From Clostridiaceae bacterium (lineage in GTDB: Bacteria; Bacillota; Clostridia; Christensenellales; CAG-138): 61,717 nt of DNA. The notes below the pieces were generated by a model that was not told the DNA's origin, did not search any database, and saw only the letters and a program-made list of their open reading frames with translations. The stretch covers positions 1 through 61,717 of the forward strand of contig JBDKRL010000010.1 of NCBI GenBank assembly GCA_039683415.1. Direction: 5' to 3'. Below are positions 29,643 through 43,805 of this stretch, in pieces; the stretch's first letter is position 1, and the number at the start of each line of letters is the position of its first letter. The position numbers and the translations under genes are program-made.

Positions 29643-29960
29643 ATGGAAAATTTGGATGAAGCGCTGAGCGTGGCAGAACAGGAAGCACAGGGTTATGGTG
29701 ACGCCTTTGAGATCATCGTACAGCGCAAAACTACGGGCATGAAAGCCACTATGCAGGTCTACGCGATGAATACCTTGGAACAGGTTCTTACGGGAGCCGC
29801 CGACTTAATCAAAGTCAACGTTGAAAAGAAGATTCTTATTTTCGAAAATGCGAGCACACAGAAAAGCACGACCGACAGAACGCTGACCATCGCCGAAATG
29901 GGTCTTCAAAAGGGCGATACGCTGTGTATCTCGGAAGACGGCCCTGTAGCGGCTTGCTAG
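29643..29960 (+). CDS. Ubiquitin-like beta-grasp protein (Bil/Prok-Ub-like), 105 aa
   Basis: Predicted beta-beta-alpha-beta-beta pattern (FEIIVQRK / KATMQVYAM / TLEQVLTGAADLIKV / KKILIFEN / TLTIAEMGLQKGDTLCI) parallels ubiquitin. Ends ...SEDGPVAAC. It is the first gene of the operon containing the E1, E2 and JAB genes. Confidence 0.55.
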   Translation: MENLDEALSVAEQEAQGYGDAFEIIVQRKTTGMKATMQVYAMNTLEQVLTGAADLIKVNVEKKILIFENASTQKSTTDRTLTIAEMGLQKGDTLCISEDGPVAAC

Positions 29961-29999
29961 ACGAGACAGGGGACGATTCACGCAAAGGGAGGGGGGGAC

Positions 30000-30434
30000 A
30001 TGCATATGGTACTGCTTACGATCGGCATCGCGCTGCTCGCCGCGGCCATACTGATTTGGTCCGTCACGGGGCTGCTCTCGCGCCGAAAGCCCGCGGCGCA
30101 GCGCTCTTTGCCGCCTCCTCTCCCGCGGCAAGCCATACGGAACAATGCGGTGGGAGCGCTTCCTCCAGCCGGCGCGCGCCGCTCACCGCCGCCGCTCCCA
30201 CGGCAGGCAGCGGGTGGCGTACGTGCTCCAGCATACGGAAACGCAGGTTCACTCCCAAGGCAGTCGACCGTGGTTCCGCGCGTGGCCGGATTACGGAATA
30301 TTTATGACTTTCCGAAGTGCCCGTATCATCGCATTCGAAATAGTCCGGGTCAGCCTCAGGTGATCTTCTGGGACGGCCAAAAAAGGGTTTTCCGTTGCTG
30401 CAAAGGACATGAATTTTCGGGAGGGGAAGATTGA
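30000..30434 (+). CDS. Small membrane-anchored proline-rich protein with C-terminal CxxH...CCxxH zinc-binding-like module
   Basis: N-terminal TM (VLLTIGIALLAAAILIWSV), two copies of PPPLPRQA, and C-terminal FPKCPYH...FRCCKGHEF. Stop at 30432-34 is 1 nt before the E1 start. Confidence 0.5.
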   Translation: MHMVLLTIGIALLAAAILIWSVTGLLSRRKPAAQRSLPPPLPRQAIRNNAVGALPPAGARRSPPPLPRQAAGGVRAPAYGNAGSLPRQSTVVPRVAGLRNIYDFPKCPYHRIRNSPGQPQVIFWDGQKRVFRCCKGHEFSGGED

Positions 30435-30435
30435 T

Positions 30436-40553: not shown

Positions 40554-41150
40554 ATGAGCGAGTTGCTGTTTCCCAGCATTGTGACGAATATAGACGGACA
40601 CGATCAAACTACAAATCTTATAAGCTACGATCTGACCAAGAACCGTACGGTTTACATCATCGGCGAAATTGATGATTTCATGGCGACATCCGTACTTTCG
40701 CAGTTTCGCTATCTGGCGGCAAAGTCGGGCGACGATATCACCGTCGTCATCAACAGCCCCGGCGGCTCTGTCACGGCGGGTATGGCGATACTGGACGGCA
40801 TGAAGACTGGGTTCCGCTGCGAAATGGCAACGTTTGCAACGGGCGTCGCTGCCAGCATGGGCGCGCTGCTCCTTGCCGCGGGCACGAAGGGCAAGCGGCA
40901 TGCATCCGCATCAACGGAGATTATGATTCACCAGCCGCTCGGCGGGGTGCAAGGGCAGGCGACGGACATTTCGCTCGTTGCGGAGCATATTCAAACGGTC
41001 AAGCGCAGACTGGCGGACAGACTGGCCGACTATTGCAAAAAGGAGCGGGACGAACTGCTGCGCGATATGGAGCGGGACTACTGGCTCACGGCCGAAGAAG
41101 CGAAGGCGTATGGGCTGATCGACCTCGTCGGTTACCCGGAGCAGTTTTAA
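40554..41150 (+). CDS. clpP: ATP-dependent Clp protease proteolytic subunit (ClpP paralog)
   Basis: INSPGGSVTAGMAI, GVAASMGALLLAAG (catalytic Ser), IMIHQPLGGVQGQATDI (His), MERDYWLTAEEAKAYGLID (Asp). The near-canonical ClpP sequence runs end to end. Confidence 0.85.
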   Translation: MSELLFPSIVTNIDGHDQTTNLISYDLTKNRTVYIIGEIDDFMATSVLSQFRYLAAKSGDDITVVINSPGGSVTAGMAILDGMKTGFRCEMATFATGVAASMGALLLAAGTKGKRHASASTEIMIHQPLGGVQGQATDISLVAEHIQTVKRRLADRLADYCKKERDELLRDMERDYWLTAEEAKAYGLIDLVGYPEQF

Positions 41151-41166
41151 GCGGAAGGAATGCGAT

Positions 41167-41946
41167 ATGATATCTGGTCAAAACAATAAACTGATTGGAC
41201 TTACGCCGCTGAACGAAGCATTGGAAAGCATATGCGATAACGGAGCTGTGTATTCGCTCAGCTATGCCGCTCCGCCGCATTTTCTGCTCAATCTGGGGCC
41301 TGGCGATGGACAGAGCACCGTGGCAAGACATATTGCGCGCGTCTATCAACAGGCGAAGATACGCCGCTTCGGCGGTCTGGACGCATATTTGGAATTTTCG
41401 CTGGACGGTACCATGGTGCAGATGAAGCGGGTGTTTGGGGATATCAAATCCTGCGCGGTCTTTACAAACGAGTATGAAGGAATCGTCGCGCTGGATATTT
41501 CCGCGCTGGCCGCGCACATCAACGAGGCGCAGACGGAGTATTTCCTGCGCGAGATCAGGAAGACTTCGTCCTTTGCGACATGCGTATTTTTTGCCGTGTC
41601 CGGTACGCAGCGGAGCGTGGCTCGACTGACGGCAAAGCTATGCGAGGTTGTGGAAAACGTGCAGACGATAACGGTTATGCCATATACAAGGCGTGAACTC
41701 GCGGCGATCATCGAAGAGAAAATCAATGCGCGCGGTATAGAAATTGAGGAGCCTTCAGCTTTTCGGGAACGTTTGGCCGCGCAGCTTGCCGAAGGGGAGA
41801 TCCATACAGCCAAGCAGGCGGTCAGCCTCGCAGAGAAAATAATGCAGCACGTGCGGCTGGAAGGAGCGACTGCGGCTATAGGACGAAAAGAGATGGAAAC
41901 CGCTTTCTCCTGCGACGTTGAATGGGAAGGGTGTGTGAACCGATGA
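41167..41946 (+). CDS. Degenerate AAA+-like (pseudo-ATPase) protein
   Basis: Walker-A-like FLLNLGPGDGQSTVARHIA lacks the Lys. Walker-B-like VALDISAL lacks the acidic pair. Sensor-1-like FFAVSGT. Lies 16 nt after clpP, and its stop overlaps the next start (ATGA). Confidence 0.45.
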   Translation: MISGQNNKLIGLTPLNEALESICDNGAVYSLSYAAPPHFLLNLGPGDGQSTVARHIARVYQQAKIRRFGGLDAYLEFSLDGTMVQMKRVFGDIKSCAVFTNEYEGIVALDISALAAHINEAQTEYFLREIRKTSSFATCVFFAVSGTQRSVARLTAKLCEVVENVQTITVMPYTRRELAAIIEEKINARGIEIEEPSAFRERLAAQLAEGEIHTAKQAVSLAEKIMQHVRLEGATAAIGRKEMETAFSCDVEWEGCVNR

Positions 41947-43805
41947 GAAGCGACCGCTGGGCATATCCATTAGAGATTAAGGAAGTGCTGACGCTGGAAG
42001 AGGCGTGCGGCAACGCCGGCGGACAGGTTCTCTATAGGGAGAACAACCAAAACTGGGTTTACGGCGGCGAAGGGCACACGATTATTCTCGGCGTGAGCGG
42101 AAGCGGAAAAAGCAGGCGCGGAACGCTGCCCATGGTACGCTCGCTTATATGGGCGGAGGAGTCGTTTTCCGTTCTCGATCCAAAAGGCGAAATCTATGAC
42201 GAGACGGTTGAATATGCGCGGAGGCAGGGATTTGAAGTGCATGTGGTCAACCTTCGGCACATCCGAGAAAGCGAACGCTGGAATCCGCTGACGCTTCCGT
42301 ATGAACTGGGCAGGTCCGATTCACCGGAAAACAAACAGATATCTGCGGAGATGATTGACGAGCTGGCGCATTCGATCTATAAAAAGAACGACAGTTCCGA
42401 TCCGTTTTGGACGGATTCCGCGCGTTCGCTGTTTATAGGCGCCGTATATGCGCTCATGGAATACGCAAAACCGGAGCAGGTTACGATGGCCGGCGTATAT
42501 CAGCTGATTGTTAACGGGGAAAAGCGCTGCGGACCCGTTTCGCTCCTCAAAGCGTTCGTGGACGAGATGCCGGAAAATTCAGTCACATCCATGCTACTGC
42601 AAAGCTACCTGAATACTGCTTCGGATACACGCGGCGGCATTCGATCGACTTTTTTAGAGGGCATCTCTACCTTCACCCGCAGCGAAGGAGTCTTGGAATT
42701 TTTGGTCGCGGACGATTTGAAGATCGGAGCGCTGGACGGCGCGCGAAAGACGGGCGTCTATATCATTCTTCCCGATGAGAACCCGATTTTCGACCGTCTG
42801 GCGGGCGTGCTGATGAGCCAACTGATGTCGCATTATATTCGCCTTGCACAGAACACGCTTGGCGGAAGGCTTCCCATCCGCATGAACGTCTGCCTTGAGG
42901 AACTCGGGAATGTCGGCGGAGCGCTCGCTAACCTGCCGCACCTGATGTCTGCGGGGCGCTCCCGAAACATTCGCTGCCAACTCGTACTGCAGTCTCTTTC
43001 CCAACTGACCGATATCTACGGCGCGAGCAGCGCGACGACCATCCTCAGCAATGCGGACGTGATCGTGGCTTACCGTACGAATCATTGGGATACGCTCACG
43101 GAGCTTTCCCGCAAGTGCGGCGAGCGTGAAGTGGATTACGGCGCGCATACCTCCCGCGAGGCGCTTATCACGCAAAGCCAGATAGGATCCATGCAGACGG
43201 GTCAAGCGCTCGTTATGGTTTCCGGCCGTTTAAAATTCATCACTTGTCTGCCAGATTACAGCGATATGTATCCGCGCGTGGAGTATCGGGAGCCTGTACG
43301 CAATAATCGCCAATACACGCCGCCGCCGGAAGCGATCTGTGTGGCGGCAATGATTCAGGAACTGAAAGCGAAAAAAGAGAGCCTTGAGGACGCAAAAGAC
43401 GAGGAGAAATCAGAAGACGAGCCCGGTGAACGAGTTTCCTTTTTTGATCTGATGCTCGCGGAACTTAACTGCAACAACGACGACCCCAAAGCGCCAAAAT
43501 CTGCGATTCAAGAGCGAATTGACGCAAGGATGGCGGAATTGCGCGAAGAAAGACTTGAAAAAAGCGGAAAGAAAGCGAACAAAAGGAAAGGGGGGTATGA
43601 TGTGATGATTCTGCACGATGGGGGGAACAGGAGCGCGGTGATCAATGCACTGATCGCTACCAGGTCTGCGACTCGCGCACAAGCGTTGATCCATGCATCT
43701 GATTTGCCTATAGAGATACATCTCAAATCGAAAAGAACAGCGGATAAGCTGAAAAAATCGATTTCCCTGGCTGGAGGAACGGCTATCGTATATCCTGCTG
43801 AGTAA
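41943..43805 (+). CDS. TraG/TraD/VirD4-family coupling-protein-like ATPase, second paralog (intact Walker A, no TM helices)
   Basis: ILGVSGSGKSRRGTLP Walker A, Walker B CLEELGNVG, and a TraG-D_C-like RSRNIRCQLVLQSLSQL. Same architecture as the 25702-27354 protein. Confidence 0.7.
   Translation: MRSDRWAYPLEIKEVLTLEEACGNAGGQVLYRENNQNWVYGGEGHTIILGVSGSGKSRRGTLPMVRSLIWAEESFSVLDPKGEIYDETVEYARRQGFEVHVVNLRHIRESERWNPLTLPYELGRSDSPENKQISAEMIDELAHSIYKKNDSSDPFWTDSARSLFIGAVYALMEYAKPEQVTMAGVYQLIVNGEKRCGPVSLLKAFVDEMPENSVTSMLLQSYLNTASDTRGGIRSTFLEGISTFTRSEGVLEFLVADDLKIGALDGARKTGVYIILPDENPIFDRLAGVLMSQLMSHYIRLAQNTLGGRLPIRMNVCLEELGNVGGALANLPHLMSAGRSRNIRCQLVLQSLSQLTDIYGASSATTILSNADVIVAYRTNHWDTLTELSRKCGEREVDYGAHTSREALITQSQIGSMQTGQALVMVSGRLKFITCLPDYSDMYPRVEYREPVRNNRQYTPPPEAICVAAMIQELKAKKESLEDAKDEEKSEDEPGERVSFFDLMLAELNCNNDDPKAPKSAIQERIDARMAELREERLEKSGKKANKRKGGYDVMILHDGGNRSAVINALIATRSATRAQALIHASDLPIEIHLKSKRTADKLKKSISLAGGTAIVYPAE

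Follow-up and report, generated by a model that had tools for sequence, protein, structure and literature searches.

The 61,717-bp contig JBDKRL010000010.1 of an NCBI metagenome-assembled clostridial genome (the window, by which the whole of this DNA is meant) carries at 29643-43805 a run of genes around a ubiquitin-like (Ubl) conjugation cascade, in which a Ubl protein, an E1-like adenylating enzyme, an E2-like enzyme and a JAB-type metalloprotease are encoded together with a small membrane zinc-finger protein (TM-ZnF; TM, transmembrane). Judging from sequence comparison with other genomes, these genes and several of their neighbours form a conserved unit of 17-19 genes, and this unit is modular, a five-gene core being combined with swappable protease, nuclease/pump, membrane and sensor modules. 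It fails on the features of the known Bil systems that could be tested, and no paper that could be searched combines the components; we therefore rate it as a new family among the bacterial systems for Ubl conjugation, one whose supra-operonic architecture is without precedent. With moderate confidence, we read it as a membrane-associated system of the conflict (defence) type, which occurs in Clostridia of gut and rumen and is organised around a genuine Ubl cascade.

The conjugation core and its conservation

Relatives were collected with an E1-based scan of one genome per species, which gave 35 close loci, and further loci were added through exact-protein look-ups; the components were counted by tblastn with the 14 window proteins over 36 non-redundant loci. 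The hosts of the 35 loci are Lachnospiraceae, Oscillospiraceae, Ruminococcus, Eubacterium, Erysipelotrichaceae, Anaerovoracaceae and Butyricicoccaceae, all of them Clostridia or relatives. At 25-65% amino-acid identity in the tblastn counts, and at 35-60% in the comparison across families, the gene order of the window recurs in them, namely Ubl, TM-ZnF, E1, E2, JAB, a transglutaminase-like gene, SPFH, a multi-pass membrane protein (4TM), a zinc-ribbon/TM protein (ZnR_TM), HerA, an HNH nuclease, ClpP, a probable inactive AAA+-like partner of ClpP (pAAA) and a VirD4-like ATPase (VirD4b). The first five genes are present in essentially every locus that has room for them, the transglutaminase-like gene in 25 of 36 (after the JAB gene), and SPFH in 21 of 36, always with ZnR_TM. 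HerA and HNH co-occur in 13/13 loci, ClpP is found in 13, and pAAA follows it in 10. One locus (L040) has 13 of the 14 genes in the order of the window.

The remaining loci illustrate how the modules are exchanged. The minimal five-gene core stands alone in Blautia L001, L016, L021 and L032. In L027, L031, L036 and L056 the system has a form without SPFH, HerA and HNH, whose ClpP, pAAA and VirD4b genes immediately follow either the transglutaminase-like or the zinc-ribbon gene. These three genes are a constant trio where the sequence extends far enough, with VirD4b following pAAA in all such loci (L027, L031, L036, L040, L056). In L005, the closest relative examined (64% E1 identity), a 1085-aa AAA-AAA-Lon protein is found in place of ClpP. 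An alternative module, which consists of an Endonuclea_NS_2 nuclease with an acidic C-terminal tail, a TrwB-like ATPase, a 391-392-aa protein and a Peptidase_M48, lies upstream of the core in L001 (4866-9023) and downstream of it in L024 (12716-16827). Finally, parts of the system are fused to each other: two E1-E2 fusions are 640-648 aa long (P0005, P0006), and one E1-ClpP fusion of 675 aa is encoded at L030:2215-4242, a locus in which no E2 or JAB gene was detected.

A profile of 28 Ubl sequences matches polyubiquitin (2e-6, summed over the repeats), the UBL of Ddi1 (6e-4 over its full length), the UBLs of USP4 and SUMO1, in a range of 2e-6 to 4e-2; ubiquitin-family domains dominate the matches and the few exceptions (TAF8, an engrailed chimera) have E > 0.1. 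With hhalign the E-value against ubiquitin is 1e-3 at a low probability (21%). A preliminary description of this DNA had predicted a beta-grasp fold for the 105-aa protein, and these profile matches make that fold likely; the single-sequence AlphaFold model (predicted local distance difference test, pLDDT, 44.5) is too poor to bear on it. In the orthologue alignment Val102 and Ala103 are invariant. Most orthologues stop right after G-x-V-A, others add 2-11 non-conserved residues, and the Ubl of the window carries a two-residue tail (AC) past VA. Four loci have head-to-tail di-Ubl genes (L009:2582-3157, L010:8960-9523, L013:8983-9546, L055:9035-9550), in which the GVA end of the first unit abuts the second unit directly, in the style of polyubiquitin. 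With these C-terminal extensions and di-Ubl genes, the family follows the pattern known from ubiquitin precursors and from the Ubls of Bil, which are trimmed by the cognate JAB deubiquitinase (DUB) before use (PMC10557695).

The E1 (426-435 aa) has one ThiF domain (residues 28-245; Pfam ThiF 7e-28) and a Cys-rich C-terminal region. Cys192 is invariant and is the candidate catalytic cysteine. C173 and C261/C264 are invariant and C176 is near-invariant, and C324/C327/C348/C351 are invariant as well, which suggests two zinc sites in the E1, the second being the four-Cys site of the C-terminal domain. By profile, the E1 has its nearest solved relatives in TcdA, UBA3, Uba1 (active adenylation domain) and Cap2; BubCD is reached at 4e-5 only, and no BilD chain is among the 60 best PDB matches. 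PADLOC assigns the E1 to its CBASS 'E1-E2' (Cap2) models only.

The E2 has no Pfam, NCBIfam or PADLOC match, and its profile gave only sub-threshold E2 matches among PDB sequences. An AlphaFold model from a 61-sequence alignment reaches a pLDDT of 91.5, and the top 50 Foldseek matches of this model are all UBC E2 enzymes. It is this structure prediction that settles, at the level of a model, the UBC fold that the preliminary description had expected of the 197-aa protein. The modelled structure is closer to that of canonical E2s of eukaryotes than to those of the bacterial E2s characterised so far. Asn102 is invariant and Cys110 nearly invariant in the motif LASPNVFRSGxACIDxW, with an N-to-C spacing that we take to be equal to that of HPN...C in canonical E2s. 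The family is small: a search of 1.84 billion representatives yields 66 clusters at E<=1e-10.

The JAB protein matches Pfam Prok-JAB weakly (0.003), and in 26 sequences E64, H175, H177, S185 and D188 of the JAMM motif (E...HTHx7SxxD) are invariant. Its profile finds Rpn11-type JAMM proteins alone in the PDB, weakly (E 0.09), and a Caldiarchaeum Rpn11-like protein is among the few matches. In 35 loci the TM-ZnF gene separates Ubl from E1; its product has a TM helix at residues 4-22 by hydropathy, two PPPLPRQ motifs in the proline-rich linker and a knuckle C-x2-(C/D/H)...C-x3-H, of which C107, C133 and H137 are invariant in the alignment. The Ubl, E1, E2 and JAB proteins thus retain the residues that catalysis requires.

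Membrane, effector and upstream modules

The core and the membrane proteins share a proline motif, PPPLPxR, of which five copies are found in four window proteins against 0.35 expected, a number reached in 0/2000 shuffles. These lie within 30000-30434, 32380-32440, 35440-35470 and 36190-36218; a degenerate copy (PLPGKR) at the C-terminus of the E2 (32359) brings the number of proteins that share the motif to five. In the orthologues the motif is present in the linker of TM-ZnF (31/35), at the C-terminus of the E2 (30/33), at the N-terminus of JAB (at least 13/30), in the SPFH linker before the zinc ribbon (5/21) and, as PPPLPxR or PLPxR, at the C-terminus of the multi-pass membrane protein (14/14), and the copies hold equivalent positions in otherwise poorly conserved stretches. 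By the positive-inside rule, all copies are predicted to be cytoplasmic. The motif resembles a class II SH3 or WW ligand and looks like a docking code for one putative reader domain, or a common hub. Since the motif persists in the minimal form, the putative reader should be a core protein; our guess would be the C-terminal domain of the E1.

In the transglutaminase-like protein C154, H186 and D201 are invariant. The SPFH protein matches Pfam Band_7_1 (5e-20), and its C-terminal zinc-ribbon region matches an NCBIfam rubrerythrin-like domain at 0.002. Hydropathy gives the 216-aa membrane protein at least 3-4 TM helices, from three peaks and a fourth hydrophobic stretch, and ZnR_TM has a CPRC...CDQC motif and TM helices at 146-186 by hydropathy. 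By architecture alone, the SPFH protein is like YdjI of Bacillus subtilis, which consists of an SPFH domain, a linker and a C-terminal zinc finger and is recruited to the membrane by YdjG and YdjH (PMC8581546). The likeness of 34412-36897 to this phage-shock-linked YdjI/YdjH/YdjG (SamGHI) module lies in the combination of SPFH with two adjacent small membrane proteins; in contrast to PspA-YdjGHI, the window has no PspA gene in this module, SPFH comes first in the order, and PPPLP motifs are added.

HerA matches Pfam DUF87 and HerA_C (7e-8 and 2e-7) and the PADLOC HerA model (2e-19), with Walker A GKTGVGKT and Walker B VILMDEAH. Its best NCBIfam match is CedD (8e-18, below the cut-off); it is not a HerA_antiphage equivalog, because it scores 34.8 bits there, far under the cut-off of 800. 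The HNH protein matches Pfam Colicin-DNase (8e-16) and WHH (4e-11), and WHH is a nuclease domain of the toxin class (PMC3482391). Its N-terminus (39517-39900 in the window) contains a duplicated segment of about 45 aa and is strongly acidic, the first 130 residues including 35 Asp/Glu but only 5 Lys/Arg. The N-termini of all orthologues are likewise acidic, with DW..FD-type motifs, and count 23-38 Asp+Glu except in the shortest one, that of L029 (13). This region may give the pump ATPase a handle, or it may act as an autoinhibitory mimic of DNA. Four relatives have a small ORF (open reading frame) of no known family between HNH and ClpP (L013:19564-19821, L023:15820-16113, L025:19560-19817, L034:19527-19910), a possible immunity gene of 85-97 aa (in L034 called as 127 aa); the 146-nt gap 3' of HNH in the window holds no ORF, and no homologue of this small ORF was found in the window.

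In ClpP the stretches AASMG, IHQP and ERDYW are visible, so that its Ser, His and Asp stand in the surroundings usual for the family. The preliminary description had paired it with a degenerate AAA+ partner. The ClpP half of that claim is firm (8e-58) and the P-loop of pAAA is degenerate as described (GPGDGQST in the window, GSGRTT/GxGRTT in relatives), so that this partner does not show the intact Walker A/B motifs of an active AAA+ unfoldase; its AAA+ identity comes from weak NCBIfam matches to holA (2.5e-4) and SpoVK (0.02), and its profile gave nothing significant in the PDB. VirD4b matches Pfam T4SS-DNA_transf (2e-38) and TraG-D_C (3e-21). Its last ~70 aa (43560-43805) match the L7/L12 C-terminal domain of Escherichia coli RplL by BLASTP (5e-5), and ClpS adopts a fold related to that domain. 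As a separate observation, similar C-terminal helices are seen in VirD4a (IDELIKKIDERIEAFEKEQAAE, 27250-27354), in the E1-ClpP fusion of L030 (IETLVSKIDAKIAEFEAQEAAE) and in VirD4b (IQERIDARMAELREERLEK, ~43430-43490); they may be a second docking element.

The preliminary description let the system begin at 29643, and this boundary did not stand, since conserved partner genes are found at 23675-29213. The 5' ATPase, VirD4a (Pfam T4SS-DNA_transf 2e-43, TraG-D_C 4e-21), has homologues of 52-67% identity 5' of the Ubl core in L008, L013, L015, L027, L031, L038, L055 and L056, and inverted in L025; hydropathy gives no TM helix in either VirD4a or VirD4b. In those nine loci the TPR/RNPP_C-like gene is always 3' of VirD4a (33-53% identity), and in L013, L027, L031 and L055 it is followed by a homologue of u4. 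Residues 88-216 of u4 also match the C-terminal 130 aa of a 1094-aa NACHT protein that lies 5' of the Ubl operon of L005 (BLASTP 8e-16). Homologues of u0 occupy the same relative position in L008, L015, L025, L027, L031, L038 and L056 (25% identity to the 282-aa gene of L056, E 5e-13). The membership of u1, a possible regulator with a Pfam Trans_reg_C match just under the cut-off (1e-5), is uncertain; the other loci have no sequence homologue, only a positional equivalent of ~335 aa. The best promoter-like site of the region (24735-24764) lies 5' of u1. We read the VirD4a/TPR/u4 unit as a module for sensing or switching that can be exchanged for others. In several loci the core has NACHT, nSTAND or kinase-STAND-TPR genes beside it; kinase-STAND-TPR proteins adjoin the minimal core in L016, L021 and L032.

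Known systems and possible functions

Ubiquitin-like conjugation in bacteria has been shown only recently, for CBASS Cap2, Bil and Bub. To our knowledge, all of these are compact operons with no built-in link to proteolysis. The bacterial E1/E2/JAB/Ubl operons were first sorted into types 6a-6e (Iyer et al. 2006), which are now named CBASS Cap2/Cap3 (6b), Type I and Type II Bil (6d and 6c) and Type I/II Bub (6e / DUF6527) (PMC11601603), and of these Bil and CBASS are antiviral (PMC11601603, PMC10557695).

The preliminary description had compared the make-up of the window with Bil. The two share separate Ubl, E2, JAB-family DUB and E1 genes, a sparse distribution, and a reactive Ubl residue followed by a short non-conserved extension, which implies pre-processing by the DUB. 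The details are different. The gene order of Bil is Ubl-E2-DUB-E1 (PMC10557695), whereas it is Ubl-TMZnF-E1-E2-JAB in the window and ~35 relatives. The Bil E1 consists of inactive and active adenylation domains with a helical catalytic-cysteine (CYS) insertion, in contrast to the 426-aa E1 of the window with its single adenylation domain and zinc-binding C-terminal domain. Bil Ubls have a universally conserved C-terminal Gly and up to nine non-conserved residues, against V-A and 0-11 residues here, and the Bil E2 motif is CEHH, against a canonical PN-x7-C. The window family also has the obligatory membrane zinc-finger gene and large accessory modules, and it is found in Clostridia, whereas Bil hosts are mainly Proteobacteria. 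The Ubl profile reaches BilA (8u38) at E 0.26 only, and PADLOC 2.0.0, for which the presence of Bil models in the set is unconfirmed, gave no match for Ubl, E2 or JAB. On gene order, E1 architecture and the end of the Ubl, Bil membership fails, and 'Bil-like' is an analogy. Bub and Type II CBASS Cap2/Cap3 share the bacterial E1/E2/JAB machinery and also E1-E2 fusions; in the window family the fusion order is E1-E2 and not E2-E1, and there is neither a DUF6527 protease nor a CD-NTase, so that it belongs to neither of these groups.

Outside bacteria, the eukaryote-like operon of Caldiarchaeum and other archaea encodes ubiquitin, E1, E2, a small zinc-finger protein and an Rpn11-like protein. Its likeness to the window, as we understand it, is the five-gene set of small zinc protein, Ubl, E1, E2 and JAMM protein with a canonical-type E2 motif; the Caldiarchaeum zinc protein is presumably a binuclear RING and its ubiquitin presumably ends in GG, in contrast to the membrane-anchored single zinc knuckle and the VA end here. 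The window family is also bacterial and has effector modules. HerA-effector pairs (SIR2-HerA, DUF4297-HerA) provide a further parallel, as a HerA-class ATPase adjoins, co-occurs with and is translationally coupled to a toxic effector in the window family too; here the effector is a WHH/colicin-DNase HNH protein with an acidic pro-region, HerA carries a 380-aa N-terminal extension, and the pair lies inside a far larger operon. The window family resembles ubiquitin- and Pup-proteasome systems in that the genes for a small protein tag and for its ligation and removal lie with those for a compartmental protease and its ATPase partners, and in one relative E1 and ClpP are even fused; the protease here is ClpP or Lon, and the candidate motor is a VirD4-family ATPase with a pseudo-AAA+ protein. 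No published description of the combined components was found in the searchable full-text literature, where most subscription journals are outside the search and a prior account is possible. This agrees with the preliminary description, which knew of no described system with this composition, and no annotated conjugation or partition apparatus matches the arrangement.

How could the parts work together? JAB would trim the Ubl precursor and expose the invariant G-x-V-A carboxyl end, the single-domain E1 would adenylate this end, probably form a thioester on Cys192, and pass the Ubl to Cys110 of the E2. The cytoplasmic PPPLPxR tails would gather the E2, JAB, TM-ZnF, multi-pass membrane and SPFH proteins on a hub at the inner face of the membrane, for which SPFH and its two YdjI/H/G-like membrane partners may be the scaffold. 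Conjugation would mark proteins of an invader, or inhibitory segments of the system itself, and the marked proteins would be handled by ClpP, the pseudo-AAA+ protein and VirD4b, or elsewhere by Lon. In the long form, conjugation would license DNA destruction by HerA-HNH; before the trigger, the acidic N-terminal region may hold the nuclease inactive. Sensing or switching would fall to the upstream VirD4a, TPR and Sel1-like proteins, which are replaced in relatives by NACHT or kinase-STAND proteins.

The conflict reading is preferred because of the effector swaps, the WHH toxin class, the NACHT/STAND neighbours, the domain that u4 shares with a NACHT protein, the Cas1/Cas2, mad3 or PDC matches in some flanks, the otherwise varied flanks, the sparse distribution and the antiviral role of Bil and CBASS. 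The exchange of ClpP for Lon, and of HerA-HNH for Endonuclea_NS_2 with a TrwB-like ATPase and Peptidase_M48, is a hallmark of conflict systems. Several points weigh against it. The minimal five-gene form is without an obvious effector, and HerA-HNH occurs without ClpP in L010, L014, L022 and L029, so that a strict chain from Ubl through ClpP to the nuclease cannot be general. The fold of the Ubl is assigned from profile matches alone, as the AlphaFold model failed, and the AAA+ nature of the 259-aa pAAA is weakly supported at the level of sequence. A PADLOC search, which the preliminary description had proposed, returned the CBASS E1-E2 and HerA models and nothing else across the window proteins, and candidates for Cas1/Cas2, mad3 or PDC lie in only a few flanks, in a tally that has no baseline. 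A more specific version is tentative: the genes would encode a self-contained ubiquitin-protease pathway of Clostridia, in which a eukaryote-like E2 and a compact E1 put a VA-ended Ubl tag on substrates at the membrane, and a VirD4-family translocase with a pseudo-AAA+ adaptor passes the tagged proteins to ClpP/Lon. Such a pathway would be assembled through the PPPLPxR docking code, would serve to trigger nuclease immunity, and would be a bacterial analogue of the ubiquitin-proteasome route.

A chance assembly of unrelated small systems, in which a HerA-nuclease pair, a ClpP pair and a stray coupling protein happen to adjoin a Ubl operon, is effectively refuted. The core-only loci, which the preliminary description had named as a possible sign of chance, do exist and show that the modules are separable; the full order is nevertheless found again in numerous divergent genomes, and the parts are tied together by fusions, for which reason the system is taken as modular. 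Synteny in ~35 other genomes, the neighbourhood check that had been suggested, together with the E1-ClpP and E1-E2 fusions excludes chance adjacency, and the shared PPPLPxR motif of core and accessory proteins and the tight spacing or translational coupling of the genes point the same way. The E1-ClpP fusion also fits a Ubl-directed pathway of proteostasis or membrane stress, not of defence, in which damaged or mislocalised membrane proteins are tagged and degraded by ClpP, Lon or M48, the SPFH/YdjGHI-like module marks the sites of membrane stress, and the whole is an analogue of ubiquitin- and Pup-proteasome quality control. The interchange of ClpP, Lon and M48 (HtpX-type) proteases, the architecture that SPFH and its two membrane partners share with phage-shock-linked YdjI/H/G, the membrane anchors of several components and the weak proximity of the JAB profile to proteasomal Rpn11 would suit such a pathway. 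We consider it unlikely, as toxin-class nucleases (WHH, Endonuclea_NS_2) paired with pump ATPases fit poorly, the distribution is sporadic and very sparse at varying genomic positions, STAND, NACHT and kinase neighbours recur, and the content of the modules is highly variable.

The pump ATPases also invite the idea of an apparatus for toxin export or nucleic-acid translocation, in which three pumps of the FtsK/HerA/VirD4 class and the small membrane proteins carry DNA or the acidic-tailed nuclease through the membrane, to exchange DNA or to antagonise other bacteria, with the Ubl cascade regulating assembly, loosely like YukD in type VII secretion. Two of the ATPases are VirD4/TraG-like and the below-cut-off match of HerA is to the DNA-translocating CedD; WHH and colicin-DNase are typical of secreted polymorphic toxins (PMC3482391), both alternative nucleases have unstructured acidic tails beside a pump ATPase, and the small ORF 3' of HNH in four loci might confer immunity. 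However, VirD4a and VirD4b are without the TM anchor of coupling proteins, and VirB4, a VirB6-like channel, relaxase, LXG/WXG, signal peptide and cell-wall hydrolase were found neither in the window nor among the commonest flank families of the 35 loci, which separates the system from type IV secretion and conjugation. It is likewise separated from polymorphic toxins, as HNH has no known trafficking domain and the 146-nt gap after it, like the window as a whole, offers no immunity-gene candidate. No homologue was found in the plasmid and phage collections searched, and one locus only among 2.9 million viral contigs. Export seems quite improbable, more so than proteostasis.

The family adds to the bacterial repertoire an E2 nearer to the canonical eukaryotic ones, precursor genes in the manner of polyubiquitin, a link of E1 to ClpP/Lon proteases that is both genetic and, through fusion, physical, and a proposed proline-motif docking code. 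Each of these opens to testing a long-standing question, namely whether bacteria had tag-directed proteolysis and immune signalling by ubiquitin before eukaryotes arose. Experiments are feasible because the family is present in cultured human-gut isolates; carriers in culture are Bacterium DFI.6.37 (L010) and Ruminococcus sp. 5_1_39BFAA (L001).

Gene layout and flanking DNA

The features of the region are listed in Table 1. The preliminary description had proposed 14 co-directional ORFs with their domains, two membrane proteins among them, a membrane zinc-finger gene between Ubl and E1, and a soluble VirD4-like ATPase. All 14 + strand ORFs are found where it placed them, with intergenic gaps of 1-49 nt and a single one of 146 nt (40408-40553) when the best starts are used; the domain assignments and gene content hold (Pfam ThiF, Transglut_core, Band_7_1, DUF87, Colicin-DNase/WHH, CLP_protease, T4SS-DNA_transf), the position of the zinc-finger gene is confirmed, and hydropathy agrees with the membrane assignments and the solubility. 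The starts that were taken as most plausible are 30436 for E1 (as in the NCBI record), 32380 for JAB and 36917 for HerA. The HerA and HNH genes overlap by 4 nt, the pAAA and VirD4b genes overlap too, and ribosome-binding sites of the GGAGG type precede most starts. No curated NCBIfam family exists for Ubl, TM-ZnF, E2, JAB, the transglutaminase-like protein, SPFH, the two membrane proteins, pAAA or HerA.

Table 1. Positions of the features in and around the Ubl-conjugation gene cluster of the window
Feature	Position	Strand	Description
u0	23675..24523	-	divergent 282-aa gene, no Pfam family
u1	24779..25678	+	299 aa, weak OmpR-type winged-helix match
VirD4a	25606..27354	+	second soluble VirD4/TraG-like P-loop ATPase
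TPR / RNPP_C-like repeat protein	27399..28442	+	Pfam RNPP_C 9e-6, TPR_14
u4	28458..29213	+	251-aa Sel1/TPR-like protein
terminator-like hairpin	29257..29285	+	AACCGCG-TTAACAG-CGCGGTT followed by T6, read by eye
Ubl	29643..29960	+	105-aa ubiquitin-like protein, precursor ending GPVA-AC
TM-ZnF	30000..30434	+	144 aa; N-terminal TM helix, proline-rich linker, C-terminal zinc knuckle
E1	30436..31716	+	ThiF-type adenylating enzyme; ORF opens at 30409
E2	31766..32359	+	197 aa; predicted UBC fold, PN-x7-C motif, PLPxKR tail
JAB/JAMM metalloprotease	32380..33405	+	N-terminal PPPLP tail; ORF opens at 32215
transglutaminase-like cysteine enzyme	33419..34369	+	Pfam Transglut_core 2e-11
SPFH (Band_7_1) protein	34412..35551	+	low-complexity linker, PPPLP motif, C-terminal zinc ribbon
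multi-pass membrane protein (4TM)	35568..36218	+	216 aa; C-terminal PPPLPEKR tail
ZnR_TM	36250..36897	+	215 aa; N-terminal zinc ribbon, helical region, C-terminal TM pair
HerA/FtsK-class ATPase	36917..39520	+	ORF opens at 36770; ATG at 36917 with GGAGAGGAG ribosome-binding site
WHH/colicin-DNase-type HNH nuclease	39517..40407	+	duplicated acidic N-terminal region
ClpP paralogue	40554..41150	+	Pfam CLP_protease 8e-58
pAAA	41167..41946	+	259 aa, probable inactive AAA+-like partner of ClpP
VirD4b	41922..43805	+	soluble VirD4/TraG-like ATPase, C-terminal L7/L12-CTD-like domain; alternative start 41943

A promoter and terminator scan found no more sites in the window than in shuffled sequence, and it detected the GC-rich hairpin just past the 251-aa gene in part; by eye, this hairpin is the one convincing site. 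With the T-run that follows it, the hairpin suggests two transcription units, 24779-29213 and 29643-43805. The ~350-nt non-coding stretch between the hairpin and the Ubl gene has no Rfam match, nor has the window as a whole. The G+C content rises from ~0.47-0.52 in the flanks to 0.55-0.61 within 29-40 kb. The high G+C content almost certainly accounts for three long antisense ORFs (249-388 aa), which were rejected as spurious; two of them lie opposite conserved + strand genes (32161-33327 and 39484-40374, both -), and the third (28865-29614, -) spans the 3' part of the 251-aa gene together with the non-coding DNA 5' of Ubl. The cluster 'c21', which resembles antisense translation, was also treated as spurious.

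Plasmids and E. coli genomes contain no megablast match to the 14 kb, and tblastn of the E1 found none in plasmid and phage collections; with these tblastn results and the single IMG/VR locus, an origin from phage or plasmid was rejected. The flanking ORFs of the window that were scanned with Pfam include no integrase, and integrase and phage structural families, like VirB4 and relaxase, are absent from the commonest flank families of the 35 loci. Those flanks consist of varied housekeeping genes with recurrent STAND NTPases. In the window the flanks are metabolic, with short-chain dehydrogenase genes on either side (21663-22625, -; 44539-45327, +) and genes for a Rieske oxygenase, a DUF362 ferredoxin, an alpha/beta hydrolase and a DUF4432 protein.

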